64,000 nucleotides of DNA from Verrucomicrobiota bacterium (lineage in GTDB: Bacteria > Verrucomicrobiota > Verrucomicrobiia > Limisphaerales > AAA164-E04): contig CP170459.1 of assembly GCA_047947115.1 (NCBI GenBank), positions 3,840,001-3,904,000 of the forward strand. The letters run 5' to 3'. This document shows, piece after piece, positions 8,254-54,103 of this stretch (within the stretch, counting starts at the first letter, position 1; each line of letters starts with the position of its first letter). Made by a program: the position numbers and the translations under genes. Under the pieces are notes generated by a model. It was not told the DNA's origin and did no database searches. It saw nothing but the letters and a program-made list of their open reading frames with translations.

Positions 8254-8346
8254 GGAGAGATGGCTGAGTGGTCGAAAGCAACGGTTTGCTAAACCGTCGT
8301 CGTGGGATAACTGCGACCGCGGGTTCGAATCCCGCTCTCTCCGCCA
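8254..8346 (+). tRNA. tRNA-Ser(GCT)
   Basis: GGAGAGA/TCTCTCC acceptor stem, anticodon arm ACGGT-TTGCTAA-ACCGT, long variable arm, GGTTCGAATCC T-arm, encoded CCA. Confidence 0.97.
8281..8346 (+). repeat. attL core (3' 66 bp of tRNA-Ser)
   Basis: Identical to 54038-54103. Confidence 0.95.
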
Positions 8347-8472
8347 TTACTTCCTCCAGTATTGTGTCTTATGTTGTTTTTCTTGGTCCTAAATTGGGGT
8401 TTGGTGCTATTCTGTTGGCCAGTTAATTGACTAAATATTGACTCATTTTCCCCGAAAGACTACTGTTTACCT

Positions 8473-9618
8473 ATGGGTTCTACAAAAGTATCTGTTAGGA
8501 AGTATAACCATTCTAGAACAGGTAAGTGGGTAGTAGGATACCGCGACACTGCCGGCAGTAGGCGAAGAGAGTTCTTTGCCACAAGATCTGAGGCCAATTC
8601 CAGAGCTGACCAGCTTAAGGTTGATTTAAAAAACCTTGGCAATCGATCACTGGGACTGACTGATCAAATCCGCATTGAAGCTCTTGAATGCTCCGAGAAA
8701 CTTGCGTCTTTCGGGAAGACATTGTCCCAGGCCACTGAGCACTACATTTCTTATCTCCGGACCACTGAGCGCTCCACCATTATCCGAGACCTGGTTTGTC
8801 GTTATTTGGACTCCAAGAAATCCAAAGGCCGATCTGACCGACACATTAAAGATCTACGTTCCAGATTGTCCCGCTTTTCTGATTCGTTCGGTGATAAGTT
8901 CGTATCCACTTTGACTACCGAGCAACTGGATCAGTGGCTTTTGGGGCTAAATCTGAGTCCACAGTCAGTGAACAACTACCGGACAGTTTTAAACGGGCTT
9001 TTTAATCATGCACTGAAACTTGGTTATACTCAAACCAACCCAGTTGACGGAATTGATCGACATTCAGTCAAAGTGGCACCTCCTAACATTTTGACTCCTG
9101 ACCAGTTGAAACGACTTCTGGCTGCTTCAAATCCCCTTCTTGTGCCTTATATCGCGATTGGTGCATTTGCTGGTCTGCGTTCCGCGGAACTGGCCAGGCT
9201 TGATTGGCGCGATGTCCGATTGGATCGTGGGCTGCTTGAGGTCACTGCAGCCAACTCCAAGACAGCCTCCCGGCGGTTGGTTGAATTATCTGACAATTTA
9301 AAAGCCTGGCTTGAGGCATGCGTTCGCCTCAATGGCCCTGTTATGCCTTCGGGATTCCGTAAGTTGGTCACTAGTGCTTGGGAGGTGGTTTTCCCAAGCA
9401 GGAAGAGGGACAACGATCTTCGGAACAGTTTCGCCAGCTACCATTTGGCGCTGCACCAGAATGCTGCCTATACGGCTGACCAACTAGGGCATCGAACAAC
9501 TGCTGTTTTATATCAACATTACCGGGAACTGGTCTCTAAAGAAGAAGCCGAGCAATACTTCGCTATAAATCCAGAACGATCAGGCAACCTGATTATCATG
9601 TCAGCAGCCAGTGCTTAA
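8473..9618 (+). CDS. int: Tyrosine recombinase/integrase
   Basis: AFAGLRSAELARL (catalytic R), SKT (K), NDLRNSFASY, LGH...HY; N-terminal arm-binding-like region; directly after the tRNA. Confidence 0.93.
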   Translation: MGSTKVSVRKYNHSRTGKWVVGYRDTAGSRRREFFATRSEANSRADQLKVDLKNLGNRSLGLTDQIRIEALECSEKLASFGKTLSQATEHYISYLRTTERSTIIRDLVCRYLDSKKSKGRSDRHIKDLRSRLSRFSDSFGDKFVSTLTTEQLDQWLLGLNLSPQSVNNYRTVLNGLFNHALKLGYTQTNPVDGIDRHSVKVAPPNILTPDQLKRLLAASNPLLVPYIAIGAFAGLRSAELARLDWRDVRLDRGLLEVTAANSKTASRRLVELSDNLKAWLEACVRLNGPVMPSGFRKLVTSAWEVVFPSRKRDNDLRNSFASYHLALHQNAAYTADQLGHRTTAVLYQHYRELVSKEEAEQYFAINPERSGNLIIMSAASA

Positions 9619-9673
9619 ACGGGTAGGCGCAGCACTGCGGTGACATATTTCTTATTCAATTTCTAATTGGAAC

Positions 9674-10489
9674 ATGAAGGACGAACTATTGGACCGAAAG
9701 GAGTGGGATTTTACCGATATCCCTACGGATGAACTAGAATCGGCGTGGCAATACGAACTGGCCAGGACTGTAAAATCATGTGTGATGGATCAGGCGGTTT
9801 GTTCTAATAATCTGGCAGGTGATCCGCCGAGGAAACTTGATTTGAATAAGGATGACGATGCTATGCTTTGGTATGAGAACACTGTAGGTTGGTATGATGA
9901 TTGGGCTAGCTCAAACGAAATATCGGCACACACCTACCTCCCTTGGACCAGCTTACCAGCAAAGTATAAAACGAAATACTTGATCGCACACAAAGGGGAA
10001 ATCCCTGCCCACCTAACACATGATCACTGTTATACGATGCCATATTCCAGAACTCTCGTCCACCTGGAATACAACCCCTCCCCAAACTCCCAGGTCCTAC
10101 AAAAAAGACACAATTACTTAAAAGCTCAGGACAGACCAGTCACATCTCTACATTTATTTGAAATCCATTTCCGACGAGGTATCGATAGCCGGAGTTCAAT
10201 GATCAGCGATTTTAAGAAGTTTTTGGAGGAGGAATTTCCTAACATGCCTGATAAAGTTGGTCGCCCTAAGTCCAAGATGCCAGAGTTAACGAACCTCGCA
10301 ATCTTTAGGCTACTCATTCACTATACCCCTGATGAGACAATCAGCAAGATTGCAGGAACCTACTCACAAAGGCGCCGTATCAGTTTGAAAGAGCTGGAAA
10401 AAGCTGAAAAAGCTGTCTGTGCTCAAATGCAGGGATTCTGTAAACCTTACCGAACAAGATTTACTCCAAAGCCCCTGGGCCCGTCTTAG
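9674..10489 (+). CDS. Hypothetical protein (island backbone)
   Basis: 271-aa ORF co-oriented between int and xis; EWDF...WQYELAR N-terminus, GRPK motif. Confidence 0.6.
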   Translation: MKDELLDRKEWDFTDIPTDELESAWQYELARTVKSCVMDQAVCSNNLAGDPPRKLDLNKDDDAMLWYENTVGWYDDWASSNEISAHTYLPWTSLPAKYKTKYLIAHKGEIPAHLTHDHCYTMPYSRTLVHLEYNPSPNSQVLQKRHNYLKAQDRPVTSLHLFEIHFRRGIDSRSSMISDFKKFLEEEFPNMPDKVGRPKSKMPELTNLAIFRLLIHYTPDETISKIAGTYSQRRRISLKELEKAEKAVCAQMQGFCKPYRTRFTPKPLGPS

Positions 10490-10700
10490 CTTAAGTCTCA
10501 AAAGCTGGGATTCCTTGGCGGCCCAAGCCCAATAATGAGTTTCGTTAATGGAACTCGTCTTTTATGATTGCATGCAAAAAGTGTAAACCATTTGTAAACA
10601 ATGGTTAAATCTATCTGTTTAAATTATCTCCCTCCATTAAGTATCGAAGTTTTTCGGAGTATTGCATCAGGGGACCATTGTCATGTTAGCTCCGGGAGAC

Positions 10701-10928
10701 ATGGCAAAAATAAAGAAGCAATCAACCCCAACTGAAGGAGCTCTCCTCACAAGAGAGCAGGTAGCTGCTAGGTTACAGATAACAACCAGGACACTCGATC
10801 TCTGGATCGACGCTCAGAAGATACCCGTCATCAGACTTACCTCTGGTTGTATACGGTTTCAATCTGAAGCCGTTGAAAATTTCATCCAGAAGCACACAAT
10901 TAATGCAAGTTGGGAGTTACCACTATGA
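10701..10928 (+). CDS. Excisionase/AlpA-like helix-turn-helix protein
   Basis: LLTREQVAARLQITTRTLDLWIDAQKIPVIRL..GCIRF; GGGAG RBS before ATG 10701. Confidence 0.85.
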   Translation: MAKIKKQSTPTEGALLTREQVAARLQITTRTLDLWIDAQKIPVIRLTSGCIRFQSEAVENFIQKHTINASWELPL

Positions 10929-11149: not shown

Positions 11150-11746
11150 ATGGATTCAAAAGAATCAAATAACACATTCGCGAACATCGACAAGTTTCGC
11201 ATCACACAAGATTTCGACGATATCAGCGTCGAAACTGCCTATACCCACATCCCGTTGCGTAAACCCGGCAAAACCGAATTCTTTAGAGTTAATCCCTCCG
11301 AGGAATCCCGCGGCCAGTTCCTATTCCTGGATTACAGTGAACCAGGGGCCATGACCAAAGACAAATATTTGATTGTACCAGAGCTGGTGAATCAAATACC
11401 AGATGTCTCGGGTGTGAAAGCCCATTTGGTAGTGACGGCTGTATCCAGACCAGAGAATGCACCGTTTCTTTGGCCGATTCGTTTACCAAACAAGACAATG
11501 TTTGGTCCGGATACTTGGGCTCTCTCCGACCTGGACATATTGAAGAGATCAGAAGAGGAGTGGTTGCGTAAAGAAACGAAAGCCGGGGTTCAAGGCTACA
11601 TGGCCGTCATCAGCAAAGCCGATTGGCCGGAACCCGAATTCCCGAACCTGAGTTTCCAGGAGATGCTCGCTAAAGCCATACCAGAGGAACGAATTATAAA
11701 GGATCAAAGCCACACTGTGATCCGCAAGATTAGAGGGGAAATATGA
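11150..11746 (+). CDS. Hypothetical protein translationally coupled to the DNA polymerase
   Basis: 198 aa, AAGGA RBS, ATGA overlap with the polymerase start; LRKPGKTEFFRV and PFLWPIRLP motifs. Confidence 0.75.
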   Translation: MDSKESNNTFANIDKFRITQDFDDISVETAYTHIPLRKPGKTEFFRVNPSEESRGQFLFLDYSEPGAMTKDKYLIVPELVNQIPDVSGVKAHLVVTAVSRPENAPFLWPIRLPNKTMFGPDTWALSDLDILKRSEEEWLRKETKAGVQGYMAVISKADWPEPEFPNLSFQEMLAKAIPEERIIKDQSHTVIRKIRGEI

Positions 11747-13473
11747 ATCTGGCAGCCTTCAAGGAAATCTGGGTGATTGATTTCGAATACCAATCCCTAC
11801 CGGGTGAGAACCCAGATCCGCATTGCATAGTGGGTTTGGAAACCATCACCGGCAAGTCGATAAGAATGGGTGCAAAGGAACTTCGATCGTCGAAAGTTCC
11901 TCCATTCGGCATCGGCTCAGATTCCCTTGTCGTGGCTTACTACGTGCCAGCCGAGTTCAGTTGTTTTCTGGAACTCGGCTGGCCGTGTCCTGAAAATATT
12001 TTGGATCTTTGCGTAGAATTCAAGTGGCTGAAGTCAGGCGTGGCGGATGGACTCAAACGTGACTTGGTAGCAGCCCTGAAACACTTCCGACTTGATGCGA
12101 CGATCCCAGACGCGAAGGACGAATGGCGGCAACTTGCGATACGGGGAGGGCCGTTTACTACCCCGGAGATGGAAGGACTCATGGATTACTGTGCGGAAGA
12201 CGTATATGCGACGGCGGAGTTGTTGACTAAAATGCAGCCACAAATCGATCTCATCAGAGCTTTAATCAGAGGCTCATATTGCTGGTCTGTGGCCCTTATG
12301 GAACGCGCAGGTGTGCCAGTCGATATGGAGGCTTTGACGTTGTTGTGGGGGCAATGGAGCGCCATACAAAGCGGCCTAATAACCGCAACTGACAAATGGG
12401 AGATCTATGAGGGCAATACCTTCAAACGGGATCGGTTTGAGGCCTTCCTGAGGGATCACAAAATCCAATGGCCGAGGTTGGATTCCGGTCAACTCTGTTT
12501 AAAAGACGAGACATTCAGGCAACAGGCTAAAATCCATCCACGATTGATTGCCCCCTTGCACGAATTACGCACCACTTTGGGTAAACTGAAGTTAAACAGT
12601 TTGGCTGTCGGCAAAGATGGCCGCAACCGTGTGATGTTGTCCCCATTTCAATCAAAGACGGGACGCAACCAACCATCTAATTCCAAGTTCATTTTCGGAC
12701 CTGCTACTTGGATCCGAGGCCTTATAAAACCGGGTGCAGGCCGGGCGATTGCTTATATCGATTGGAGTCAACAGGAGCTTGGAATTGCGGCACGTCTTTC
12801 AGGCGATCGGAATATGATGGAAGCCTACTGTTCAGGGGACCCATACATCACTTTCGCGAGAATGGCGGGTGCTGTGCCGAAGGACGCTACCAAGCAAAGC
12901 CACCCAGCTGAAAGATCGCGATACAAACAGTGTATGCTTGCCGTCCAATACGGCATGGGAGCTGAGAGTTTGGCTCAAACTGCTTGCTTGGCTTTACTGG
13001 ATGCCAAAGTTCTTTTGCAAGCCCACAGGGACGCGTTCCCGGACTATTGGAAGTGGAGCCGACAAATAGAACAACAAGGATTTGGAAACGGGGAACTTCG
13101 ATCAGCGTTCGGTTGGCGTGTCCTTGTTAATTCGGACAGCCGTAGTGCCAGTGTTAAGAACTTCCCCGTCCAAGCCAACGGAGCGGAAATGTTGCGTCTG
13201 GCCATCATGAAAATGCACACGGCAGGGATCGAAGTAATCGCGCCGGTTCATGACGCAGTAATGATTGAGGCGGCTTCTTCTGAAATCGAAACCCATACGG
13301 TGAAGGCGCAAGAGTGCATGAGGTGGGCGAGCGAGCAGATCCTACCAGGATTCCCGCTGGATTCGGACGCAAAGATAGTCAAGTACCCTAACCGGTATAT
13401 GGACGAAGACCGGGGAACTGAAATGTGGAACACGGTCATGGGCATCGCAGGGGGTCCACTATATACCCACTAA
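11743..13473 (+). CDS. Family A DNA polymerase with 3'-5' exonuclease and no 5'-3' exonuclease (mobile-element type)
   Basis: Exo motifs IDFEY and YCAED; SKTGRN; motif A DWSQQELGIAA; motif B RSRYKQCMLAVQYGMG; motif C VHDA. Confidence 0.93.
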   Translation: MNLAAFKEIWVIDFEYQSLPGENPDPHCIVGLETITGKSIRMGAKELRSSKVPPFGIGSDSLVVAYYVPAEFSCFLELGWPCPENILDLCVEFKWLKSGVADGLKRDLVAALKHFRLDATIPDAKDEWRQLAIRGGPFTTPEMEGLMDYCAEDVYATAELLTKMQPQIDLIRALIRGSYCWSVALMERAGVPVDMEALTLLWGQWSAIQSGLITATDKWEIYEGNTFKRDRFEAFLRDHKIQWPRLDSGQLCLKDETFRQQAKIHPRLIAPLHELRTTLGKLKLNSLAVGKDGRNRVMLSPFQSKTGRNQPSNSKFIFGPATWIRGLIKPGAGRAIAYIDWSQQELGIAARLSGDRNMMEAYCSGDPYITFARMAGAVPKDATKQSHPAERSRYKQCMLAVQYGMGAESLAQTACLALLDAKVLLQAHRDAFPDYWKWSRQIEQQGFGNGELRSAFGWRVLVNSDSRSASVKNFPVQANGAEMLRLAIMKMHTAGIEVIAPVHDAVMIEAASSEIETHTVKAQECMRWASEQILPGFPLDSDAKIVKYPNRYMDEDRGTEMWNTVMGIAGGPLYTH

Positions 13474-13587
13474 TATTATTAATTAAGATACAATATAAGA
13501 TATATAATAAGAGGCCTACAGGGTACCCCAAATGGGCAGGGGTGCCCGTCCATTTGGGCAGGGGTGCCCGTCCATTTGGGTAGGGGT
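13471..13587. repeat. Putative replication origin: AT-rich tract plus 22-bp tandem repeats
   Basis: AT-rich 13471-13510; TGGGCAGGGGTGCCCGTCCATT at 13533 and 13555, partial third copy at 13577. Confidence 0.7.
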
Positions 13588-13603: not shown

Positions 13604-13936
13604 ATGGCTGAGGAGCTATACATTCCAGACTGCATAGAGCAGAGGGGTTCCGGTAAACCTTTTGTCAAAGGGCCCATACCGTTGGATTGGGTGAAAAGTG
13701 CCTGCCAAGCCGGAGCGGCTGAGTTGGCTTGGTATTTGCGGTATAAGGAGGGTCTTGCCAAGTCCAAAACTATCCATATCAGACCGGGGGAGATGAAAGT
13801 CTTTGGTCTGTCTGAGAAAGTTCGAAGGCGGCAGGTGAAAGCTCTGGAGGTCGCTGGGTTAGTGAAAATTATTTCAAGGCCGGGTCAAAGTCACCGGCTT
13901 GTCATTTTGGACTCCCCAAGTGGTGGGGGGCTTTAG
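13604..13936 (+). CDS. Small winged-HTH-like protein (possible origin-binding factor)
   Basis: FVKGPIPLDW...FGLSEKVRRRQVKALEVAGLVKIISRPG wHTH pattern; start placed at ATG 13604 after the repeats. Confidence 0.7.
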   Translation: MAEELYIPDCIEQRGSGKPFVKGPIPLDWVKSACQAGAAELAWYLRYKEGLAKSKTIHIRPGEMKVFGLSEKVRRRQVKALEVAGLVKIISRPGQSHRLVILDSPSGGGL

Positions 13937-13947: not shown

Positions 13948-14217
13948 ATGGTAAAATTAGCAGAAAAGTCAAAGTCGATATACGACATCGCCCACAACCT
14001 CATCTGTGGGAAGTTGAGAAAAACAGGAAAGACACAAACTCCCGATGTAGCAATTGAAGAGCTGGTCCAACTTACTGGAGTCACTAAGGAGTTAGCCACC
14101 GATGCGGTTGAATATATTTTCTTCTGCTTGGAAGATATGTCTGGAACGTTCGATACCGAGGAGGAAGCTGATGAAAACGCACGGGAACTTCTGTGGTTCG
14201 TGTTTCAAGAAAAATGA
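13948..14217 (+). CDS. Hypothetical protein
   Basis: 89-aa ORF with AAGGA RBS, co-oriented, followed by a hairpin. Confidence 0.55.
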   Translation: MVKLAEKSKSIYDIAHNLICGKLRKTGKTQTPDVAIEELVQLTGVTKELATDAVEYIFFCLEDMSGTFDTEEEADENARELLWFVFQEK

Positions 14218-14252: not shown

Positions 14253-15127
14253 CCCCATCATGGTGAAGTTTCATCACTGAAGGCGCCCTTGATGTAGGTT
14301 GTTGTCGTCATCAGGAACGGTCCTGCAAGTTGCAAGACCTGGCAACCTGGCTATAAGAACTCCACGGGCCAACCATAGCACCAGTCGTACCATGAGGTTT
14401 ACAAAAACAGCTTCTCGGCATATGAACGCTTCGTGATCGTAACGAAGGAAAGTTAGCTTACTCAAACTAAACACCCAAACGGCTAGCCCGCCTCGTACCG
14501 CTGTCCCGGTCAACCAGGGATGGCTTTGGAGGTTCTTTCACTCTCACTCATCCGGTTCGCTTTCGGTAATGGATGCGACTGTCACCAAGAGAGTAGGGGA
14601 GAGGCCTCTCCTGTTCAAATCTGAATTTTCTCCACCTCATCGAGAGTTATATCGTCTCGAGCGCGATCGTAACGTTTGGTTGCAGGTTTACCCCCGGTTC
14701 AGCAATTGGAAATGTTTCCCGGATTTATTGTGGAACGTAACACACGGTATCTTATTCGTGTTGAATGCTTCAAATGAAGCGCCGAAGATACCGAAGGAAA
14801 TGTTTACGTGCAGCTATGAAGCTACCGTTCGTTGCCAGAATCACAGATGGCGGCTGGTGACAGCTTCGCCATATTTGGGCCCACCAGCGCGGATGGAAGG
14901 GGCGTTCAACTCTGGCGCGCCCCGTCCTTTGAGGAAATCGCCGCGACCGAGGCGCAACAGAAATCAATCAACCAACAACAATGATCCGAGAATGTTCACA
15001 CTTACTGAATCAACACCCATGATCTTTGGTTGAGACGGATCGCCGTTAAAGAACCGAATGCATGACTTTACAAGGACAACCCAATTCTATTACGATGCGC
15101 AGAGACCACCAAACGGAAGGAACGAAC

Positions 15128-16810
15128 ATGACACGAGTGAACACTATTATGGCCGTGATGAGTTATTTGCTCGTCATTGCGATGAACGGAGAGGCAACCT
15201 CTTCGTCGCGCCCCAACATCCTGCTGATTGTTGCCGACGATCTTGCCTATACCGACATAGGCGCGTTCGGCGGTGAGATCCACACGCCAAATCTTGATGC
15301 GCTCGCCAGGGCAGGCGTTCGGTTTACCCAGTTTTACTCCGCACCCACTTGTTCTCCGACTCGTTCGATGCTGCTGTCAGGAATGGACAATCATCAGGCC
15401 GGTCTCGGTAACATGGCGGAAGACCTGCGCGAGAACCAAAAGGGACATCCTGGGTACGAGGGTTACCTGAACATGCGGGTAGCGGCCTTGCCCGAGCTGC
15501 TTCGGGAGGCGGGCTACCACACCTACATGGCCGGCAAGTGGCATCTCGGTATGACGGAGGAAACGAGTCCGGCCGCCCGCGGGTTCGAGCACTCGTTCGC
15601 ACTGTTGCAGGGTGGGGCCGGCCACTTCACCGACCTGCCTCTTGTTGGTCCGAACCCGGCCAGTTATCGCGAAGATGGCAAACCTGTCTCGTTGCCGGCC
15701 GATTTCTATTCGAGTAAAACTTACAGTGAACGCATCATCCAATATCTTGAAAACCGGCCGAACGACGGTCGTCCGTTTTTTGCCTATCTTGCGTTCACGG
15801 CACCACACTGGCCCTTGCAGGCACCCGCCGAATCCATAGCAAAGTATGCCGGACGTTACGACGCAGGTTACGATGCGTTGCAGGCGTCCCGATTCGCGCG
15901 GATGAAGCAACTGGGATTGGCGACTCCGGTCATGCAGATGACTCCACGGATTCCAGGCGAGAAAGCCTGGGAAGCGCTTAATGGTGAAGAGAGAAAAATC
16001 GCGGCGCGCAAGATGGAGATCTACGCCGCCATGGTCGACGATCTCGATCGCTATCTTGGCACCGTTCTCGAGACGCTCAAACGTCGCCGGGAGTTCGATA
16101 ATACCTTCATCTTTTTCATGTCCGACAACGGTCCCGAAGGCTCCAATCTCGACGTAGGCTGGGAGGACCTCAGCAAGTGGGTGGCGCAGTGCTGCGACAA
16201 CCGATTTGAAAACATGGGCAGTGACGATTCTTACCTGTGGTATGGCCCTAATTGGGCACGGGCTGGTACCCCTGCATTGCGGGGAATCAAGGGGTTTGCT
16301 TCAGATGGTGGTATCCGTGTGCCGGCCATTGCCCACTTCCCGAAATCTATTCCCGGAGGCTCTCTCCAACACAACCTGGCCACGGTCATGGATGTGATGC
16401 CGACGTTGCTGGATGTTGCCGGAGTCAAGCACCCGCCGACTTTTCAGGGACGCGAGGTGCTGCCTTTGCGGGGAACATCGATGATACCCGCTCTCACCGG
16501 CGCCCGTGCACGCGTGCATGCCGAGGACTATGTGATGGGATGGGAATTGTTCGGCAATCGGGCCATCCGCCAGGGTGATTGGAAGATCGTCTGGCGGACA
16601 GTGGAATCGAGCTATCCAACCGTGCCTCGTGACCCCGAAATCGCTCATGACGTCTGGCGACTGTACCATCTTGCCGAAGATCCGGGCGAGCGGGTCGATT
16701 TGGCGGGAACACATCGTGACGTGTTGCAGGCCATGGTGGCGCACTGGGAAACCTATGTCAGGGAGACCGGCCTGGTACTTCCGGATTACAAAGCCAGTGC
16801 AACCCCCTGA
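15128..16810 (+). CDS. Arylsulfatase (Cys-type)
   Basis: PNILLIVADD, CSPTRSMLLSG, GKWHLG, SDNG; GAAGGA RBS before ATG 15128. Confidence 0.92.
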   Translation: MTRVNTIMAVMSYLLVIAMNGEATSSSRPNILLIVADDLAYTDIGAFGGEIHTPNLDALARAGVRFTQFYSAPTCSPTRSMLLSGMDNHQAGLGNMAEDLRENQKGHPGYEGYLNMRVAALPELLREAGYHTYMAGKWHLGMTEETSPAARGFEHSFALLQGGAGHFTDLPLVGPNPASYREDGKPVSLPADFYSSKTYSERIIQYLENRPNDGRPFFAYLAFTAPHWPLQAPAESIAKYAGRYDAGYDALQASRFARMKQLGLATPVMQMTPRIPGEKAWEALNGEERKIAARKMEIYAAMVDDLDRYLGTVLETLKRRREFDNTFIFFMSDNGPEGSNLDVGWEDLSKWVAQCCDNRFENMGSDDSYLWYGPNWARAGTPALRGIKGFASDGGIRVPAIAHFPKSIPGGSLQHNLATVMDVMPTLLDVAGVKHPPTFQGREVLPLRGTSMIPALTGARARVHAEDYVMGWELFGNRAIRQGDWKIVWRTVESSYPTVPRDPEIAHDVWRLYHLAEDPGERVDLAGTHRDVLQAMVAHWETYVRETGLVLPDYKASATP

Positions 16811-19717: not shown

Positions 19718-19783
19718 TTAGGGAGATTGTTTTGTTTGGACAGGATGAACAGGATGGACTGGATGATGGATTGATTCTTGGGT

Positions 19784-44378: not shown

Positions 44379-44644
44379 AGCTTTTTTTCGAGTGTCTCTT
44401 TGAGGACTTTGATCCCGAGCATAGCTTCCGCATACATTTTTTTGAGCTCGGCATTCTCTTTTTCCAGTGCCTTTAACCGCTTGGCGTCGGCTTCGATCAT
44501 GAGGCCATACTTTTTGCGCCATCGATGGAGAGTGGCAATGGAGACCTGCTTCTGTCGGCAAAATGCCTCTTGGTTGAGATCGCTGCTATCGCATTCGCGC
44601 AACAGGCGAATGATTTCTTCTGGCTTATGTCTTTTTTGCTTCAT
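44375..44644 (-). CDS. IS3 transposase OrfA
   Basis: MKQKRHKPEEIIRLL...RLKALEKENAELKK. Confidence 0.88.
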   Translation of the reverse strand: MKQKRHKPEEIIRLLRECDSSDLNQEAFCRQKQVSIATLHRWRKKYGLMIEADAKRLKALEKENAELKKMYAEAMLGIKVLKETLEKKL

Positions 44645-44712
44645 TGTGAGTCGTTTTGGTTATTCAAAACTTCTCACTCGTTTTGGGCCAGTTTTTCAGG
44701 CGGCGGCCACTA

Positions 44713-47700
44713 TCAGGGGGCCTGATACAATAATCTCCAAAACTGCGTTTCCTGTGATTGCCTCACAAAAATGCTCATTGGCCCTGAGCTTTGGTTGGTA
44801 ATGAATTGGTAATCCTGCCAGTTGGTTAAATCATTAGAGTATTGGAGGATGTAGTTCCTGTTATCTTCCACTTGGAATTCAAGTTCAATCGCCCTGTGGA
44901 TGGTAAGGGGAGCACTTCCATTTTGATCCGGATCTGGGTCTGGATCTGGGTCTGGGGCAACTGCAGCGGACAAGTTAATGGTGTACAAATTGTGATTTGG
45001 GATTTCACCAAAGCGCAAACCACTGCTTTCAGCTGTGTCGTATCTAGAAAAGACCAGTTGATTGCCATCGGGAGACCAACTTGGATCCGCCTCACGTAAG
45101 GCATCATTGGTGAGTATCACTTCAATTTCCTGTTCGATGTGATAGAAGGCCAGATCCACTTGTTTGTTGCCCCCTGATTCGTGAACGAATGCGATGGACG
45201 AGTCGTCTGGGCTTATCTCCGGTGAGCGATTGATGGCACCGTTTTGCAAGCCGGATGAAGTCAGTCGTATGGGTTCAACTGAGCCATCGATTTGTCTCAT
45301 GAATAAATCGACTCCTTTGCCACTTGGTTCAGGCAGCACGAACCATGTTCCATCCGAATTGATGGAGCCACCCATGTGATGAATAAAATCTGGACTTCGT
45401 GATTGGAGGGCTATGTGAACATAACCGAATGCATCGGCCATGCGTCCATTCATCTCGCCGAAGGGAGCTGAGCGGATGCTGATGTTTTCTTGTCCATAAC
45501 GGGATCCAAATCGCCAAAGAAAGGTTGATTTGTCCCGACTCAAGGCAAACATCAAACCTCCTCCCCCTCCGTTAATGACGGCCAGGGAGCGAAAATCAGT
45601 CTGGCTGATATCTACTGCCTGGTCTGATTCCTTCCATTTAATTTCGATGTATTCATGCAGGCCGACTCGCTCCTCAGTCAGGATTTCTTCCCCAGTTCCC
45701 GACCAAGTAGGGTGATGTGCCACCCCATATCGACTGTTTGCACCGGTAATGATAAGGCGTTCGTCATGCCCCTCGGCTTCGACTAAACCAATATTCCACA
45801 CATCAGGGCTATTGGATGGTGGTCGGTTGGAAGCATAGATGATTTGATTTTTGCTCGGGTGCCACGATGGGGTGATTTCATCTGCTGGATCGAAGGTGAT
45901 CCTGACGGGTGTCAGCGCACATTCTTCTGCCGAGAGAACCGACTGTGCCCTAATTTGGATGAGCTGAGGTAAGGCGTCAAATCCAGTATTGATGCTGATC
46001 AGATTGAAATATTTCCCTATTTCACGTGGTTCAAGGAGTAGCTCGATAAGCAAGATATCACCTTCCTGGTAGCTACCTACTGGATGATTCCTGAAGGTGA
46101 TCTCAGACGAGCCCGCTTCCAGCCCAATTATTTCGACATCTCGGAGTATAGGAATCCGCGCGGAGAAAGGATTGGCTTCATTCAGGACAGCGCAACCAAG
46201 GCCGAAGGCCTGTTGCCCAAAAGGAGATAAGTTGTTAATCCATTGATTTGGGTCAGGTTCGTCATCATTCCAACCCGCTGGAGGAGTCGCCGCTGGATTA
46301 TTCCACATGACATATTCGCTTACTTTTTGTCTACCTTCTAGGTCTGCGTTGGTTTGATTGATTAGACCAAGCCCATCGGTATCAAGCGTATCCAGTGGGC
46401 CGGAAGGATCATCCCAGTAGTTACCCAACGATGCATCCACTACATGTTTGGTTGCGTTGTAGATGCCGTACTGTTTGTTGTCAGAAAAAGCGGAATAATA
46501 GATTGCCATCAAAGGACCTGAGGACGCGTTTGCATAAACCCCATATTCATTACCAGTGAACAAACTGTTTGTGATGGTGACGCCCACCTCTCCAGCGGAA
46601 TTTTGTACCCTAACCCCAGTTTGGCGAGAGTTCGTAAAAACGCAGCTATCTATGATGGCTGGTCCACCGTTAACAAAAAGCATGGCATAGTTGTAATTGA
46701 TTGACCCTCCTCCTCCTGAAAAAAGACAATGACTGAATTGGCTGGTTGCTTCGGTGGATCTGAGCACAACAGCTCCCCATGAAGTTTCATTTTCGTGGCG
46801 AACAAATTCAATGGGTTGATCTGGAGTGCCCACAGCCTGTATGCTTCCATTACTCGCCTGAATGTAACCGCTATAGCCCAATTCAAGACGGCAGCCTGGG
46901 GAGACAGTCAGTTTAGCATTCCCCTGAAGCGATATAGTTTGGTTGAGGTGATAAGGCAAACCATCCGCATCAAAGGTGATGTTTTTATTAACCTCCCCAG
47001 CACCCACTGAAATTGCGTTGATGCCGTTGCCCTCAGCTGTGTTATGATGATGGACTGGATCTGATTCAGGTGTCATGCGGATCGCTGGACCCTGATTGTC
47101 AATAAAATCACATTGAGTAATCTCAGGATCGCAATTCCGTATATAAATACCCGGTCCAGAGCTTCCTCTAAATGTACAGTGAAAGAATTCGGCGGAAGAT
47201 TCATAAAGAGCCAGCATGGCATAGTTGTAATTGATTGACCCTCCTCCTCCTGAAAAAAGACAATGACTGAATTGGCTGGTTGCTTCGGTGGATCTGAGCA
47301 CAACAGCTCCCCATGAAGTTTCATTTTCGTGGCGAACAAATTCAATGGGTTGCTCTGGAGTGCCCAAAGCCTTTATGCCTCCATTACTCGCCTGAATGTA
47401 ACCGCTATAGCCCAATTCAAGACGGCAGCCTGGGGAGACAGTCAGTTTAGCATTCCCCTGAAGCGATATAGTTTGGTTGAGGTGATAAGGCAAACCATCC
47501 GCATCAAAGGTGATGTTTTTATTAACCTCCCCAGCACCCACTGAAATTGCGTTGATGCCGTTGCCCTCAGCTGTGTTATGATGATGGACTGGATCTGATT
47601 CAGGTGTCATGCGGATCGCTGGACCCTGATTGTCAATAAAATCACATTGAGTAATCTCAGGATCGCAATTCCGTATATAAATACCCGGTCCAGAGCTTCC

Positions 47701-48858
47701 TCTAAATGTACAGTGAAAGAATTCGGCGGAAGATTCATAAAGAGCCAGCATGGCATAGTTGTAATTGATTGACCCTCCTCCTCCTGAAAAAAGACAATGA
47801 CTGAATTGGCTGGTTGCTTCGGTGGATCTGAGCACAACAGCTCCCCATGAAGTTTCATTTTCGTGGCGAACAAATTCAATGGGTTGCTCTGGAGTGCCCA
47901 AAGCCTTTATGCCTCCATTACTCGCCTGAATGTAACCGCTATAGCCCAATTCAAGACGGCAGCCTGGGGAGACAGTCAGTTTAGCATTCCCCTGAAGCGA
48001 TATAGAATTGTTGAGGTGATAAGGCAAACCATCCGCATCAAAGGTGATGTTTTTATTAACCTCCCCAGCACCCACTGAAATTGCGTTGATGCCGTTGCCC
48101 TCAGCTGTGTTATGATGATGGACTGGATCTGATTCAGGTGTCATCAGGATCGCTGGACCCTGATTGTCAATGAAATCACATTGAGTAATCTCAGGATCGC
48201 AATTCCGTATATGAATACCCGGTCCTCGGCTCCCTTTAAATGTGCACTGAGAGAATTCGGCGGAAGATTCATAAAGAGCCAGCATGGCATAGCCGTAATT
48301 TATTTGCCTTCCCCCTCCTGAAAAAAGACAATGGCTGAATTGGCTGGTTGCTTCGGTAGATCTGAGCACGACAGCTCCCCAAGCTTCATTTCTGGCGTCT
48401 GGAACAAATTTAATGGGTTGCTCTGGAGTTCCTAATGCCGTGATCTGACCACGTATGTCGAGATTTCCAAAAACGCCGAGATAAATAATGGAGCCCGGCT
48501 CAATGATGACTTTTTGATGCTCTTCAATGGTAAGATTGTCATCAACCCATACGCTGCCCCTGATTCGATACGTTGAGGTGTTAGGGTCTGCAATCCATTT
48601 TTCCTGGGCTTGGAGGGACAGATGCCCAAATAAGTAAATCAGGCACATCATGAATAGACGATTTAAGGTTCTCATAAAAAGTGGTGTGGTAGGACGCGAT
48701 TTGTTGCTCCATCCAGTGATAGGCATATTTATGAATAGCTTTTGAAGATCCGTTGTTTCATTTTTCATATTGCTGTTCTGGGTGTTCTTTGGAAGCGACC
48801 TACCAACTGAACTATCTCTCTCAGACCATTTTGTTTGCCAATCACGAAAATGTTGCAA
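44713..48858 (-). CDS. Large secreted protein: tandem beta-helix repeats, PD40/TolB-like propeller and C-terminal sorting-like domain
   Basis: 178-aa repeats; NYWDDPSGP; PSWHP, SPDD and PSWSPDG motifs; true start probably downstream of 48858. Confidence 0.8.
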   Translation of the reverse strand: MQHFRDWQTKWSERDSSVGRSLPKNTQNSNMKNETTDLQKLFINMPITGWSNKSRPTTPLFMRTLNRLFMMCLIYLFGHLSLQAQEKWIADPNTSTYRIRGSVWVDDNLTIEEHQKVIIEPGSIIYLGVFGNLDIRGQITALGTPEQPIKFVPDARNEAWGAVVLRSTEATSQFSHCLFSGGGRQINYGYAMLALYESSAEFSQCTFKGSRGPGIHIRNCDPEITQCDFIDNQGPAILMTPESDPVHHHNTAEGNGINAISVGAGEVNKNITFDADGLPYHLNNSISLQGNAKLTVSPGCRLELGYSGYIQASNGGIKALGTPEQPIEFVRHENETSWGAVVLRSTEATSQFSHCLFSGGGGSINYNYAMLALYESSAEFFHCTFRGSSGPGIYIRNCDPEITQCDFIDNQGPAIRMTPESDPVHHHNTAEGNGINAISVGAGEVNKNITFDADGLPYHLNQTISLQGNAKLTVSPGCRLELGYSGYIQASNGGIKALGTPEQPIEFVRHENETSWGAVVLRSTEATSQFSHCLFSGGGGSINYNYAMLALYESSAEFFHCTFRGSSGPGIYIRNCDPEITQCDFIDNQGPAIRMTPESDPVHHHNTAEGNGINAISVGAGEVNKNITFDADGLPYHLNQTISLQGNAKLTVSPGCRLELGYSGYIQASNGSIQAVGTPDQPIEFVRHENETSWGAVVLRSTEATSQFSHCLFSGGGGSINYNYAMLFVNGGPAIIDSCVFTNSRQTGVRVQNSAGEVGVTITNSLFTGNEYGVYANASSGPLMAIYYSAFSDNKQYGIYNATKHVVDASLGNYWDDPSGPLDTLDTDGLGLINQTNADLEGRQKVSEYVMWNNPAATPPAGWNDDEPDPNQWINNLSPFGQQAFGLGCAVLNEANPFSARIPILRDVEIIGLEAGSSEITFRNHPVGSYQEGDILLIELLLEPREIGKYFNLISINTGFDALPQLIQIRAQSVLSAEECALTPVRITFDPADEITPSWHPSKNQIIYASNRPPSNSPDVWNIGLVEAEGHDERLIITGANSRYGVAHHPTWSGTGEEILTEERVGLHEYIEIKWKESDQAVDISQTDFRSLAVINGGGGGLMFALSRDKSTFLWRFGSRYGQENISIRSAPFGEMNGRMADAFGYVHIALQSRSPDFIHHMGGSINSDGTWFVLPEPSGKGVDLFMRQIDGSVEPIRLTSSGLQNGAINRSPEISPDDSSIAFVHESGGNKQVDLAFYHIEQEIEVILTNDALREADPSWSPDGNQLVFSRYDTAESSGLRFGEIPNHNLYTINLSAAVAPDPDPDPDPDQNGSAPLTIHRAIELEFQVEDNRNYILQYSNDLTNWQDYQFITNQSSGPMSIFVRQSQETQFWRLLYQAP
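46681..48435. repeat. 534-bp intragenic tandem repeat, ~3.3 copies
   Basis: CATGGCATAG anchor at 46681, 47215, 47749 and 48283; middle copies essentially identical. Confidence 0.93.
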
Positions 48859-49295: not shown

Positions 49296-50098
49296 GCCTA
49301 ATTGCAACCAACGAGTGACAGCGCAATTACGGTCTAATTCTGTAAAAGCGATGTGCGGCACCCTCGTCTAAATCTACCTCTGAAGCCCCACCAGTGGCCA
49401 CAATAACAATCCTCCAGAGTTTCCAAGGACCATCTGGACTGTCAGCCACATCGATAGTCTTAACCTCTCCTGGCACGCCTTTTACGGTTACCACTGGAGC
49501 AAGCCGGATTTCTAACGATTCCTCAGGGCCTGTTAAATCTGTTTCAGGGAATAAAAAGCCGTTAGGCCAGGCTAACTCTAAGCCTATTCTTATAGCTTCA
49601 GATTCAGAGTGGAATCGCTCAGGTATGAGTGCCTGAGTCAAAAAATCGCACCCATAAAATGCCTGCTCTTTTATGGTGGTAGTTCCCTCTGGTGCGCCAG
49701 CTGAGCGCAGATCTCGACAAAAAGCAAAGGCCTGAAAGCCAATTGTATGCACTGTTCGGGGCAATGCCACTGTTTCTAATCCAGTCCGAACGAAAGCAAA
49801 ATTCGATATGGTCGTCACACCGACTGGCAAATTGATAGACTTTAGCTGTTCGCAATTCATAAAACAGCCCTCCGGAACTACGTCAATATCCTCAGGCCAA
49901 TCCACAACAGATAGCTTTCTGCAGCCCACAAACAGCTCAACTCCCAGCTTCGCTCCAGGCGGGATGCTAAAGCTGAGTAATGATTCGCAGTTTTGAAAGG
50001 CTCGCTGACCGATCGTCTTAATTGAGCTAGGAATTTGAATTCCCGTTATCAGGCTGCACCGCTGGAATGCATCCTTGCTTATGGTTGTGACCGGATAA

Positions 50099-51581
50099 GA
50101 GCCCGTTTAATAAGTGCTTGTTTTGAAAAACCGAATAATCCGAATCTCGTCCCGCTTCGATTTCATCAAGCTGCATAATAAAATGGTGGAAATCAGTAAA
50201 AGGACGGCGGGAGCCATATTTATCGCCCCCTGAGTCATCCATTCGCCAAAAATTATGACAAAAGCAGCCGCCAAAGCGGTAGCGAGGCTCGCTTCCCAGT
50301 TTCTTGGCTTGGCGAGGCCAAAGATTTTACGCATCAGCAATCCTAGGTTGAATGCTGCGCACTTCAGTGTGTGAATCTTGGTGACATTTTCCATTCCCTG
50401 GAGCCAGGTTCGACGTCCAGCTCCTGTTTCGCACACATGAGCAAATGTTCGCTCCACAAGTTCGCTTCGTTTTCGACTCAGTCGCTTACCCTTGACACTC
50501 CGAACTCTTCGTCGATTACCACGGAATGCGTGTTCGTAGCATTCCGGTTTGTCCACCCACTTACGCTTCTTTTGCTTCTTCTCTGGTATGTATGTGCGGA
50601 TACCCCACTGCGTGAGCCGTTCCAACAATGCGTTGCTGTGATATCCCTTGTCCATCACCGCCTCTTCAACGGTCCTTTCTGATTCGATTAATTGTAGATT
50701 GGCTTCAGCCAAGATGAGGCTCTCAGGCCTCTTGGTTGTATCGCCTTGATCTGCATGTGTGAAATGACAAGAAACAATTGCCTCGGTTTCCAAGTCCACC
50801 GAATGTTCAGCCTTATATGCAAGATGTGTGCGCCCATCTTTCATCTTGGTAATGCGGCTGTCCGGATCTGACTTGCTTTGCCATTCTTTGTTGGAAACTT
50901 TCTTCCCCTTACGCCCTCGGTCGATGCGCTGAATATCTTCATCACTCGGATTTTCAATACCTTCTTCTTTGGCCAGTTCACGAAGGTATTCTTTCCAATC
51001 CTCACCCGTGCCTTTGCGCACGATGCTACGCATGGCTGCATTGGCTTCCAGGGTGGTGGCATCAACACCAAGAGTTTTTCCCTTCAAAAGCTTTTTCTCA
51101 TTGAGTTGTTCAAGGACAAAAAGGAAAACCTTGTGAAACACATCATCGGACAAGCGTTGACGGAAAATTGTCATCGATGCGTGAACAGGAGTTTTCTCCG
51201 TCAAACTGATACCGAGAAATTCACGCAGGCAAAGGCTGTCATGACATCTCCATGCGATACCTCGTTGACTGTTGAGCCCTTCAAAATATCCGATGAAAAT
51301 CATTCGGAAATAAATTCCGGGCGCAATACCTGGCCGACCAAAATTCTTGTAAAACGGGGCGCACAACTCTTCAACATAAGCATCAAATCCGCACTCATCG
51401 AAAACCTGATTGAGTTTGGAGTAAAACGGATGAGCCGGCGTTTTGGGAATCTGATTGGAGGCAATGAACAGTTCTTGCTGTTTCGTTTTCCGTTTGCCAA
51501 GTGCCATGGCAAAGACTTTACTTGATCATGTGATCAATCACGATTCTTTTCGTGAAGAATTGTGACTTTTTTAACGGGCTG
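50099..51581 (-). mobile_element. IS1182-family element with ATAA target duplication
   Basis: IRs (C/G)AGCCCGTT; ATAA at 50095-50098 and 51582-51585. Confidence 0.88.
50107..51507 (-). CDS. IS1182-family transposase
   Basis: HPFY, GRPGIAP, VDATTLEANAA, DPDSR, DKGYHS, RSELVERTFA. Confidence 0.88.
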   Translation of the reverse strand: MALGKRKTKQQELFIASNQIPKTPAHPFYSKLNQVFDECGFDAYVEELCAPFYKNFGRPGIAPGIYFRMIFIGYFEGLNSQRGIAWRCHDSLCLREFLGISLTEKTPVHASMTIFRQRLSDDVFHKVFLFVLEQLNEKKLLKGKTLGVDATTLEANAAMRSIVRKGTGEDWKEYLRELAKEEGIENPSDEDIQRIDRGRKGKKVSNKEWQSKSDPDSRITKMKDGRTHLAYKAEHSVDLETEAIVSCHFTHADQGDTTKRPESLILAEANLQLIESERTVEEAVMDKGYHSNALLERLTQWGIRTYIPEKKQKKRKWVDKPECYEHAFRGNRRRVRSVKGKRLSRKRSELVERTFAHVCETGAGRRTWLQGMENVTKIHTLKCAAFNLGLLMRKIFGLAKPRNWEASLATALAAAFVIIFGEWMTQGAINMAPAVLLLISTILLCSLMKSKRDEIRIIRFFKTSTY

Positions 51582-51797
51582 ATAACCGTCAATTTCCGAT
51601 GGAACAACTACGTTGCCGCGGGCTGATCGATCACAGCCCTGTATGTGGGCCTCCAGTTGCGTTATCGTGTAGGACAGAGCCCCATACTGCTGAGACTGTG
51701 CGGTAACTTGTGAGCAAAGCACCAAAGACATCACCCCCATAGCAAATGTAACATCGGATTCATCACTGGATTTACTATCATAATAGTCAACGCAAAC

Positions 51798-52841
51798 TCA
51801 GTCCCTCACCCTGTAGAAGCGCTTGTGTGCCTGTCCATCCAGATCAGTGATGGCCACACCTGAAGCAGTGGCAGTGACATCCATCCAGAACCGCCAAGGA
51901 CCATCTGGGCTGTCAGCCACATCGATGGTCTTCACAGAGCCTTCCTCACCCTGAACCATGATCACTGGGGCCATGCGGATGGAGGGCTGAATCGGGATCA
52001 GTGGATGTTCTGCAGATAGGCCTGATGGGTTAGGTCCCCAGTTGCCGTCCAAATAGAGTGCTAGGCAATTTTGACCGCCAATCTCGATAGCATTTTTGCC
52101 TGAGGTAAATTCTTCAGGAATGCGAACGGACCTCAGTTCATAACAATGGGCAAAAGCGTCAAAACCGATAACTGACACCCCGTCTTCTATGGTTACAGCC
52201 ACCAAATTTGGGCATTCGTCAAAAGCACCGACGCCTATCTCCGTTACCGTTCCTGGGATAGTAACTGATGCCAACCAAGATCTCCAAAAGGCCTCACCCA
52301 CAATCGTCGTCACACTACTCGGAATCGTTACAGACTCCAGAAATGGGCAATCGGCAAAGGCTCGGTGGCCAATTGAGACAACACCCTCAGGTATGACTAC
52401 AGACTCAAGTCTCGCCATTTGGAATGCCATCTGCTCGATGACTCGCAACGAACTCGGCAATCTCATTGAGCGAACACCACACGACTGAAATGCCTGCAGT
52501 CCAATGGTATGAACACTGTCTGGAATCGTTACAGACCTCAGAGAAAGTGAATAAGCAAATGCGGATTGCCCAATAGTAGTTAGCGTTTCGGGCAAAATAA
52601 CGCTCGTTAACAGGGGATTTGTGCGCCTGAAAGCAGATACTCCAATTGTAGTCACTGGAAACCCCTCAATCTCTGAAGGGACCACTAGCTCGCCCTCAGG
52701 CTCCTGCGAGCAATTGGTGATCGTCACCTCACCATCAGAAATACTGTAAGTCAGGCCACCGAGTGTGCCAGCACGGACGCTGGAGCTAAGAACTGAAAGA
52801 ACCAATACCAACCAGATGGAATGCATTACGGGCTTTTTCAT
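51798..52841 (-). CDS. BspA-like leucine-rich-repeat (LRR_5) surface protein
   Basis: Signal peptide; repeated SVTIPxSVxTIGxxAF; C-terminal ...KRFYRVRD. Confidence 0.9.
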   Translation of the reverse strand: MKKPVMHSIWLVLVLSVLSSSVRAGTLGGLTYSISDGEVTITNCSQEPEGELVVPSEIEGFPVTTIGVSAFRRTNPLLTSVILPETLTTIGQSAFAYSLSLRSVTIPDSVHTIGLQAFQSCGVRSMRLPSSLRVIEQMAFQMARLESVVIPEGVVSIGHRAFADCPFLESVTIPSSVTTIVGEAFWRSWLASVTIPGTVTEIGVGAFDECPNLVAVTIEDGVSVIGFDAFAHCYELRSVRIPEEFTSGKNAIEIGGQNCLALYLDGNWGPNPSGLSAEHPLIPIQPSIRMAPVIMVQGEEGSVKTIDVADSPDGPWRFWMDVTATASGVAITDLDGQAHKRFYRVRD

Positions 52842-53333
52842 GATGGCCGAGTTTTACCACAGGTGATGCTGAAAACTCAACACTGAGACCAACGAGTGAC
52901 AGCGTAACTACTCCCTCACGAACGAAGGACCAGTTGTTCAACGTAAGCGGATTACCGGAGTCCCCCTGAATGATACTGTCAATTCAGATGGGATTGCTTA
53001 ATTTGGAGTGTTCGCTTACCTGTTTGCGGTCAAGCTGCACTGGATGTAGCTATCAACAGCACTCCAGCGGTGTTCGCACCTCCAAGGCGGCAGCAGGCCA
53101 AAATTTCCAGTTGTGGGATGCATAAAACAGCCTCAAAAACCCAAAATGGGTTTTTATTACTACTTTTTACTACATCTAACCCTTAAAAGTCGGATTCTGG
53201 CATGGGCTGGGCGCTGGAACGCAAGGTGTGGGGGAGCCGTTTCTGCTCCTAGCGCCAGTGGAGCTTAAACCATTGTTCAAAACTATAACGATACAGTTTT
53301 GAGTTTCGATGCAATATTCGATATGCTTTCAGC

Positions 53334-53777
53334 ATGTCTTCTCTACCACTGGACATCAGACGACAAGCCAAGGAACTAATTGAAGCCGGTAAATCATCCC
53401 AGGAGATTGGCTCTCTTTTGGATATCAAACCAGGCACCGTTCGTGAGTGGAAACGACGTTATATGTGGGACGGCCCTGACGGATCTGATCGACAGTGTGC
53501 TGATGACCTGGACGACGACCAGCTACCTGCCGAATATGAGCGGGTCATGTCCACGGACGTCATGGAAACACTACACTGGATCCGCCGTATGCCAATGCCG
53601 CGCCGCATGGATGCAATCCTTAAACGAGAACGAGCATTGGAAATGCTCTCCAAGCGAGCTGAGCGGGTTATCGGCGGTTTGGCCCGGGCACATGGACAGC
53701 AGAACAAGTTGATTCAGGTGAACGCTGTGACCGCGATTCTAAGCTCTCACGAAAACTCCGGGTGTGATGTGACTTGA
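53334..53777 (+). CDS. HTH protein resembling the N-terminus of a phage terminase small subunit
   Basis: RRQAKELIEAGKSSQEIGSLLDIKPGTVREWKRRYMW followed by a helical region; adjacent to attR. Confidence 0.6.
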   Translation: MSSLPLDIRRQAKELIEAGKSSQEIGSLLDIKPGTVREWKRRYMWDGPDGSDRQCADDLDDDQLPAEYERVMSTDVMETLHWIRRMPMPRRMDAILKRERALEMLSKRAERVIGGLARAHGQQNKLIQVNAVTAILSSHENSGCDVT

Positions 53778-54037
53778 TTACTTAATTGGGATTGGTCACG
53801 TAACAATAGAGATATACCCTTGATTTTTCAGGTCTATGTGGGGTCCATTTGAAATTTGTTGTCCTGTATTTTTTTGGGGGGGGGCAGATTTATTAAACAA
53901 TTCTAATTGACAAAAAATTGACCTCTATTTTGAGCATTCGTTTCAATTTAATTCTACTAATTTCCATCAATGATTCCGCAAGTAGTTGAAAAAGCAACAC
54001 ATTGCGTAAATTGACAATAGGATGGAATTAATTGGAT

Positions 54038-54103
54038 ACGGTTTGCTAAACCGTCGTCGTGGGATAACTGCGACCGCGGGTTCGAATCCCGCTCTCTCCG
54101 CCA
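54038..54103 (+). repeat. attR (duplicated 3' end of tRNA-Ser)
   Basis: Perfect 66-bp copy of 8281-8346; the tRNA 5' part is absent. Confidence 0.95.

Follow-up and report, generated by a model that had tools for sequence, protein, structure and literature searches.

The 64,000-nucleotide window analysed here (Verrucomicrobiota bacterium, contig CP170459.1, positions 3,840,001 to 3,904,000) contains a 45.8-kb island inserted at a tRNA-Ser(GCT) gene, and we found that its backbone combines a replication module built around a family A DNA polymerase (PolA) of the CHEAP subfamily with an end gene whose product resembles the small terminase subunit TerS. Judging from the sequence, we think it fairly probable that the island is a phage-satellite-type tRNA element swollen by cargo, which would replicate by its own polymerase-based replicon and be packed by a helper phage. 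What was directly observed behind this reading is the attachment-site (att) repeat, the set of genes present, and a gene order and repeats that recur. The original prediction for this DNA described the island and its boundaries; the informative part of the backbone, namely the polymerase-based replication module and the TerS-like gene, was missed. The principal features, in window coordinates, are the following.

8254..8346, + strand: tRNA-Ser(GCT), the gene targeted by integration; the attL core is formed by its last 66 bp (8281-8346)
8473..9618, + strand: tyrosine integrase, 381 aa, uninterrupted (Pfam PF00589 Phage_integrase, E 1e-8; phrog_1, E 2e-45; motifs)
10662..10928, + strand: excisionase/AlpA-type helix-turn-helix (HTH) protein, xis (HTH_17, TIGR01764, phrog_66)
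11150..11746, + strand: 198-aa protein, predicted gp32-like single-stranded DNA-binding protein (SSB) with an oligonucleotide/oligosaccharide-binding (OB) fold, of a large unannotated family; overlaps the polymerase start
11743..13473, + strand: CHEAP-subfamily PolA, 576 aa, with 3'-5' exonuclease and polymerase and no 5'-3' exonuclease
13471..13587, no strand: likely replication origin, with an AT-rich tract at 13471-13514 and a 22-bp repeat in 2.7 tandem copies at 13528-13587
13604..13936, + strand: winged-helix protein, predicted origin-binding initiator; the longest open reading frame (ORF) starts at 13532, inside the repeats, and homologs favour 13604
53334..53777, + strand: TerS-like protein, 147 aa, N-terminal HTH and helical hairpin; the conserved last gene before att in the element family
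54038..54103, + strand: attR core, identical to 8281-8346

The exonuclease and polymerase motifs of the island PolA are intact, with Leu at motif B position B3. The protein is colinear by eye with the CHEAP reference A0A643FCZ2 over the 400 residues displayed in the published supplement, and a homolog 51% identical to it, A0A5B9QB78, is present in the dataset of Czernecki et al. (PMC10201439). From the motifs, the by-eye colinearity and the dataset homolog, we assign the island PolA to CHEAP (PolA cluster 15). This cluster comprises enzymes of ~580 aa with exonuclease and polymerase domains and Leu at B3 that do not replace Pol I, its closest group is the staphylococcal CCPol, and the reference enzyme showed strong polymerase and proofreading activities in vitro (PMC10201439). 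The present host likewise keeps a Pol I of its own, as a separate Pol I-size ORF is located at 3.54 Mb of the genome. Czernecki et al. (2023) described CHEAP polymerases as cellular auxiliary enzymes with no known partners, and the word "integrase" does not occur in their main text (PMC10201439), whereas the enzyme reported here is borne by an element and accompanied by two conserved partner genes and an origin-like site. The island PolA has more than 7,600 database relatives with a patchy distribution, CHEAP being found in 4 of 401 genomes of the host phylum (the host included) and in 5 of 301 genomes of the phylum of a Planctomycete locus; a search of 72,556 plasmids gave no match, and one of 50,697 phage-collection records gave a single weak match.

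We gathered 41 CHEAP loci, of which 27 came from IMG/VR, 12 from other genomes (a scan of genome contigs, one source of these, contributed 1 locus) and two from the present genome. The SSB-like gene lies directly upstream of CHEAP in 30 of the 35 loci with enough flanking sequence, and a winged-helix gene lies downstream in 26/39; excluding this window and two identical pairs, the counts are 29/33 and 24/36. The region between the polymerase and winged-helix genes of the island contains a 40-bp stretch of 7% GC in addition to the 2.7 copies of the 22-bp repeat. Iteron origins usually take the form of repeat arrays next to an AT-rich tract. Next to the winged-helix gene, 10 of 25 loci had repeats with a period of 20-24 bp, compared with 5 of 369 control windows, at a threshold (17 of 22) and a period that were chosen after a first look at the data. 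A T-rich hexamer cluster near the origin (9/36 loci versus 8/471 controls) is a hint only, the pattern having been picked post hoc. The winged-helix family matches winged helices of the GntR/MarR type. Among the island ORFs profiled (of 140 listed, 44 in Pfam, 14 in PHROGs and 25 in NCBIfam), those of the backbone include no primase or helicase. One CHEAP module differs from most: immediately upstream of it lies a primase/helicase-like gene that includes an RFX winged-helix domain (L145:11808-13295). We found no description of an SSB-CHEAP-winged-helix module in the full-text literature covered, which excludes subscription journals and bioRxiv supplements.

The 198-aa protein belongs to a family of 1924 clusters at 50% identity and has no match in Pfam, PHROGs, NCBIfam or the PDB sequences; its Atlas (language-model) neighbours were uninformative. 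Its model is of high confidence (pLDDT 94), and the best structural matches, all weak, were gp32 of T4 and RB69 (Z 4.7 and 4.4), followed by the OB folds of BRCA2 and RPA; the top match, to gp32, had an rmsd of 4.9 over 139 aligned residues. In addition, its viral matches include several phage SSBs at E 0.006-0.03, and we tentatively predict that the protein is a gp32-like SSB. A predicted complex of PolA with this protein scored 0.60, compared with 0.00 for the best control, with contact agreement of at least 62% and partner pLDDT of at least 78. This supports the pairing weakly: of 157 solved pairs 116 reached the mark, as did 2 of 215 mismatched ones, and only 18 of those solved pairs, but both mismatches, score at or below 0.60.

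The module occurs in both genomic and viral settings. Of ten genomic CHEAP loci, from eight genomes examined with PHROGs, eight have an integrase within 7 kb, and three have helicase or primase-type matches, adjacent in only one. For IMG/VR, where 22 of the 27 loci were profiled (149 of their 154 ORFs between 85 and 900 aa), we found terminase, portal or capsid genes in 18, an integrase in 12, a tail gene in one and a primase-type gene in one; IMG/VR picks contigs by their viral genes and many of these contigs are partial, so that the head-gene counts are biased. The contigs are 4-26 kb long and resemble capsid-forming or terS-only satellites, and in seven loci (L086, L088-L090, L103, L105 and L106) the CHEAP module is followed by bona fide terS genes. 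Five IMG/VR contigs of 8-11 kb (L093, L094, L097, L098 and L103) carry an integrase, genes of the CHEAP module and head or terminase genes with no tail match, and are candidate capsid-forming satellites with a polymerase replicon. Among public sequencing runs, run X7 contains the backbone 8320-13936 at about 2% divergence with the right end almost uncovered, and run X9 contains 11154-13980, the three-gene module, at about 1% divergence with the island integrase almost uncovered. This pattern fits a recent exchange of modules; missing cover alone proves nothing.

The 147-aa protein at the right end is modelled with an HTH that a linker connects to a long helical hairpin (pLDDT 64, pTM 0.34), an arrangement that, together with the size, fits the plan of a TerS. 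A structure search with the model returned generic helical hairpins only, with no terminase listed, and a profile search against the PDB gave nothing informative; the Atlas neighbours include a viral 144-aa cluster (0.95) and a terminase-small-subunit cluster (0.94). We examined 34 copies of the gene, five in the host genome and 29 of 33 metagenomic loci, the other four being excluded as lying at contig ends. A tRNA or tRNA fragment follows the gene in 19 of the 34 copies, representing seven tRNA types, at a distance of 233-264 bp in 18 of the 19; most of the misses are partial matches, and several of the metagenomic loci, being near-identical, do not count as independent. The gene and 100-390 bp upstream of it are mosaic between elements, and the stretch to att tracks the target tRNA. 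On balance, we lean slightly towards the 147-aa protein being a TerS.

The boundaries of the island were confirmed. An exact 66-bp direct repeat (8281-8346 and 54038-54103; 45,757 bp from start to start, with no extension on either side), corresponding to the 3' part of tRNA-Ser(GCT) 8254-8346, bounds the 45.8 kb, as the original prediction had claimed for a complete island with a perfect att duplication. The objection that the repeat might be an assembly artefact is countered by public-run contigs: it is probably none, because a contig of X7 spans attL to the integrase (8320-11077) and contigs of X2 enter the repeat from both sides of attR (53749-54067 and 54080-55019). The integrase, described earlier as intact together with xis, indeed has R236, K263, R317, H340 and Y350 all in place, and all backbone ORFs are open. 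The backbone, 8347-14217 plus about 52950-54037, totals about 7.0 kb and is split around ~38 kb of cargo and insertion sequence (IS) copies, again as described, and likewise neither conjugation nor capsid/tail families were recognised among the island ORFs profiled. The proposed check of composition showed the island to be mildly atypical, with 48.5% GC as against a genomic 51.1% (a GC as low is seen in 7 of 132 genome windows of equal size) and a tetranucleotide distance reached by 8/132 windows. The host, a coastal marine bacterium, has a genome of 6.08 Mb in a single contig; close homologs of the island proteins are labelled Verrucomicrobia, and the public runs holding the backbone are mostly seawater and salt-marsh metagenomes.

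DNA to the right of attR was not found in the seven congeners searched and is accessory, not core genome. Since this DNA starts with a broken integrase and was not found in these congeners, the element was likely inserted ahead of an older, decayed one; with the flank not found there, no exact attB is at hand for comparison. The comparison of tRNA-Ser(GCT) loci suggested with the original prediction gave a partial answer: six loci of congeners or family members were read and none joins both flanks of the window, G005 having a different integrase (36%) at the site, G003 none in the 6.4 kb read, and three contigs ending within 0.7 kb. In run X1, the contig depth of the integrase was 4.4 and that of the left flank 11.9, which is depth of contigs and not copy number. 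A repeat of roughly 118 bp just upstream of the terS cassette (52943-53060) recurs at several further places in the genome, and its contig depth is high in all runs. Outside the island, at 59645-60868, is a transposase in which a DruA-like domain at the N-terminus is joined to a DDE_Tnp_1-associated one.

Repeats of tRNA fragments mark several further islands in the host genome, which also contains four more copies of the 147-aa end gene, 86-93% identical. In four elements, namely the island, a 19.7-kb element at tRNA-Glu, a 22.4-kb Thr-type element and a 49.2-kb element at tRNA-Ser(CGA), this gene is last, points into att (about 250 bp before it in the sisters) and stands at the end away from the integrase; circularisation would place it ahead of the integrase. 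The replication genes of the sisters differ, two having a primase-like gene with an AAA_25 helicase and a 9-kb Thr element having a DUF3854/DUF5906 protein. The same end-gene layout with different replication genes supports a split backbone with an exchangeable module slot. Other elements of the genome have IS-broken integrases or have lost replication genes. The 49-kb tRNA-Ser(CGA) element (G000:C1:109381-158683) has the TerS-like gene in two copies and an integrase interrupted by an IS, and likely represents two merged elements. Another sister (G000:C1:4516432-4538852) carries type I-E-like CRISPR-Cas cargo with about 40 repeats, the spacers of which match nothing in the island, the prophage or the rest of the genome; among the loci gathered, a single 20-base stretch was their only match. 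The polymerase module is present in two elements, the island and the following one.

G000:C1:2602853-2642430: the second CHEAP element, located at tRNA-Leu(CAG) and 39.5 kb long; it has SSB-like and winged-helix genes, 22-bp repeats and the integrase at the far end

A possible helper is a 41.2-kb lambda-like prophage at tRNA-Met (G000:C1:3011316-3052523), which has an integrase, a different PolA, a GpA-type terminase, a portal, an S49 protease, a capsid-like protein and a tape-measure protein. Minus its IS remnants the island is about 39 kb, close to the size of the prophage, which may be chance.

We propose that the element would work as follows. Int and Xis would recombine attL and attR to give a circle on which terS-attP-int-xis-SSB-polA-winged-helix form one co-directional block, a step that we hold to be very probable for the lineage. 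Replication would probably then begin with the winged-helix protein binding the 22-bp repeats and opening the AT-rich tract, after which the OB-fold protein would coat the displaced strand and the proofreading PolA would copy the circle. With no primase or helicase of the element, priming would be done by host enzymes or by the PolA-SSB pair as in the related CCPol-MP. Because CCPol-MP primes without a primase (PMC7581432), self-priming is by analogy a testable possibility for the island; host priming is at least as likely. Finally, the TerS-like protein may, with chances that we put slightly above even, steer the terminase of the helper to the element DNA. As for the 38 kb of cargo, it likely accumulated in the gap from the replication module to the terS end, a position in which no backbone function would be interrupted. 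The original prediction that a small satellite-like element became a landing pad is borne out as regards the integrated satellite-like element, the split backbone and sisters with different cargo; the idea that the cargo arrived after the backbone is not, no cargo-free version having been found.

A number of observations weigh against a helper-packed satellite. The terminase family matches of the 147-aa protein cover the HTH only (residues 7-51), no relative of its gene was found in IMG/VR, and the gene is lineage-restricted, occurring in 2 of 201 genomes of the order; the second CHEAP element has no terS-like gene. Head or terminase genes were found by PHROGs within 7 kb in none of the ten genomic CHEAP loci, and the head-gene counts that favour a viral setting come from the biased IMG/VR set. 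The terminase of the resident prophage is lambda-type, without any link to the TerS-like protein of the island. At 45.8 kb the island is longer than this prophage and far above the size of described marine satellites, which reach 16.8 kb (PMC9618062). As to the replicon, the fold of the SSB-like protein is matched weakly (Z under 5), and 15 of the 25 loci have no clear repeat array. As to excision, which the original prediction held possible, no attP circle or empty attB junction was found in six distinct public runs (contig-only data), and the integrase has Asn at position 318 where nine other aligned integrases have His.

Several of these observations would also be explained by a self-replicating cargo island of the tycheposon kind, replicated by CHEAP and spread by vesicles, transformation or chance transduction, in which the end gene would encode a regulator or a recombination-directionality factor. 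The HTH-only TerS evidence, the lack of IMG/VR relatives, the large size and the genomic CHEAP loci without head genes all agree with it, and cargo-carrying tycheposons, which have no packaging genes, are enriched in vesicles (bioRxiv 10.1101/2020.12.28.424599). However, the best family matches of the end gene are terminase HTHs, its Atlas neighbours include viral and small-terminase clusters, and the CHEAP module is followed by bona fide terS genes in the seven loci named above. The size and HTH-hairpin layout of the end-gene product, too, fit TerS. We regard this account as unlikely. Lower still we place a grounded relic, once mobile and now fixed, in which the ORFs would be intact through recency and PolA would be at most an auxiliary repair enzyme beside the photolyases. 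About 6.8 kb of IS and transposon remnants (boundaries approximate), the lack of a junction, N318 and the broken or depleted sister elements are in line with such a relic; the open backbone ORFs, the divergence and cover of X7 and X9, which fit recent exchange, and the fact that the module travels with the SSB gene, winged-helix gene and repeats, not with repair genes, make it improbable. An integrative mobilizable element that spreads by conjugation and uses the winged-helix protein and repeats as its origin of transfer would resemble islands such as SGI1 in having an integrase, replication genes and cargo without capsid genes, but it is very improbable, as no relaxase or type IV secretion system (T4SS) family was found among the profiled island ORFs, no VirD4/VirB4 family matched in the 96%-complete genome and CHEAP was not found on plasmids.

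The remaining features of the window comprise two backbone genes, the cargo and a remnant beyond attR.

9674..10489, + strand: 271-aa gene after the integrase, with no Pfam, PHROG or NCBIfam family; a distant homolog (tblastn 30%) has the same position in the tRNA-Glu element
13948..14217, + strand: 89-aa protein, last left backbone gene, with no family in Pfam, PHROGs or NCBIfam
15062..16810, + strand: sulfatase (Pfam)
17266..18131, + strand: N-terminal part of a Tn3-type transposase (DUF4158) interrupted by an IS
18134..19721, - strand: IS copy 1, DDE_Tnp_1_4 transposase
19784..27241, - strand: extracytoplasmic function (ECF)-type sigma factor, a 429-aa protein and two Ser/Thr kinases with FGE-sulfatase-like domains
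27503..35933, + strand: three secreted/surface proteins (370, 569 and 1804 aa), two with Ig domains
35994..37581, + strand: IS copy 2, inverted relative to copy 1 and 99.9% identical
37676..42228, - strand: photolyase-related protein (DPRP), photolyase/cryptochrome and flavin oxidoreductase
43673..44712, - strand: IS3-type remnant (rve core)
44713..48858, - strand: 1381-aa beta-helix/beta-propeller surface protein with 534-bp internal repeats
49327..52841, - strand: two BspA-type leucine-rich repeat genes with an IS (DUF772/DDE, about 50090-51594) between them
54216..54397, + strand: beyond the island, 5' remnant of another integrase gene, frameshifted and likely left by an older element at the same tRNA

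The two IS copies with DDE_Tnp_1_4 transposases are presumably of the IS1380 type, and a composite transposon between them was rejected, as no shared target duplication was seen. The sigma factor and kinase genes (19784-27241) are divergent from the operon of Ig-domain surface proteins and may form a signalling module controlling it. At 37676-40791, the DPRP gene is the sole copy in the genome, and the neighbouring photolyase has one distant paralog (28%). The 534-bp repeats of the beta-helix protein (46679-48439) are 97-99% identical, which points to recent expansion, and the length of the protein may vary at this place.

A tRNA island with cargo is in itself ordinary, and the replicon is the new part. 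CHEAP, biochemically characterised but unexplained, gains a biological role and partners, a likely function is suggested for a large unannotated family (the 1924 clusters of the SSB-like protein), and the minimal replicon, of 2.8 kb, is directly testable. If the PolA-SSB pair does prime itself, it would be the second primer-independent family A system after CCPol-MP, and one with proofreading, useful for DNA amplification and orthogonal replication. For marine Verrucomicrobiota, the data point to a satellite-like family that swaps replication modules and carries cargo of phage-genome size. A broader proposal, which we put forward as rather doubtful, is that the CHEAP polymerases mark out a widespread and so far undescribed class of self-synthesising integrative elements, the family A counterparts of pipolins. 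The three-gene replicon of such elements (gp32-like SSB, proofreading PolA and iteron-binding winged-helix initiator) would prime and displace strands without primase or helicase and would be interchangeable among capsid-forming satellites, terS-only satellites and cargo islands of 40-50 kb.

Among known systems, the Cch2-CCPol-MP module of SCCmec (staphylococcal cassette chromosome mec; Bebel et al. 2020, PMC7581432) has the closest relatives of CHEAP and is similarly placed in an integrative island, with a small beta-rich partner and a putative origin beside the operon. CCPol lacks most of the exonuclease and works with the helicase Cch2, whereas the island PolA has the whole exonuclease and no helicase, and membership in that module was rejected on these grounds; moreover, the partner protein in the island is larger and has a predicted OB fold, and the island also contains a winged-helix gene and repeats. 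Pipolins (PMC11551731, PMC7385651) likewise integrate at tRNA genes and have their own proofreading polymerase and variable cargo, but they use a primer-independent family B polymerase; the island, with a family A enzyme and SSB-like and winged-helix partners, is not a pipolin. PolA3 (Timinskas et al. 2026, PMC12926913) is similar in being scattered, exonuclease-intact and devoid of the 5'-3' domain, and in occurring in prophage regions. In the parts of that paper available, no partner genes or origin are described, "CHEAP" does not occur in the text and the CHEAP homologs have no match in the supplement; PolA3 and CHEAP may overlap. Integrative and conjugative or mobilizable elements were rejected for the lack of relaxase, T4SS and VirD4/VirB4 families noted above.

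A close likeness is seen with PICIs (chromosomal islands that phages induce), PICI-like tycheposons and VEIMEs (mobile elements that integrate and are encapsidated in virions), the last of which have been reported from Verrucomicrobia; these share with the island a tRNA-targeting tyrosine integrase, xis/AlpA, a replication module, a terS-type gene (for which the island has a candidate) and the lack of capsid and tail genes (bioRxiv 10.1101/2020.12.28.424599, PMC9618062). The island is three to nine times larger, and replication in those elements is mostly by primase/helicase; PICI-like tycheposons have never been seen with cargo (bioRxiv 10.1101/2020.12.28.424599), whereas the island carries 38 kb of it. 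Of the traits that define a PICI, the island has att flanks with an integrase and xis/AlpA. The polymerase module occupies the slot of the primase/helicase (pri-rep) genes, and the length of 45.8 kb compares with about 10-20 kb. For the small terminase there are HTH-only family matches, suggestive Atlas neighbours and generic fold matches. A capsid-forming PICI was rejected, as the profiled ORFs of the island include no capsid, portal or large terminase of its own; these are present in several related CHEAP elements. One published trait of the tycheposon class is found in the island. The island would work like a PICI or PICI-like tycheposon, from which it stands apart in its replication genes and its size.

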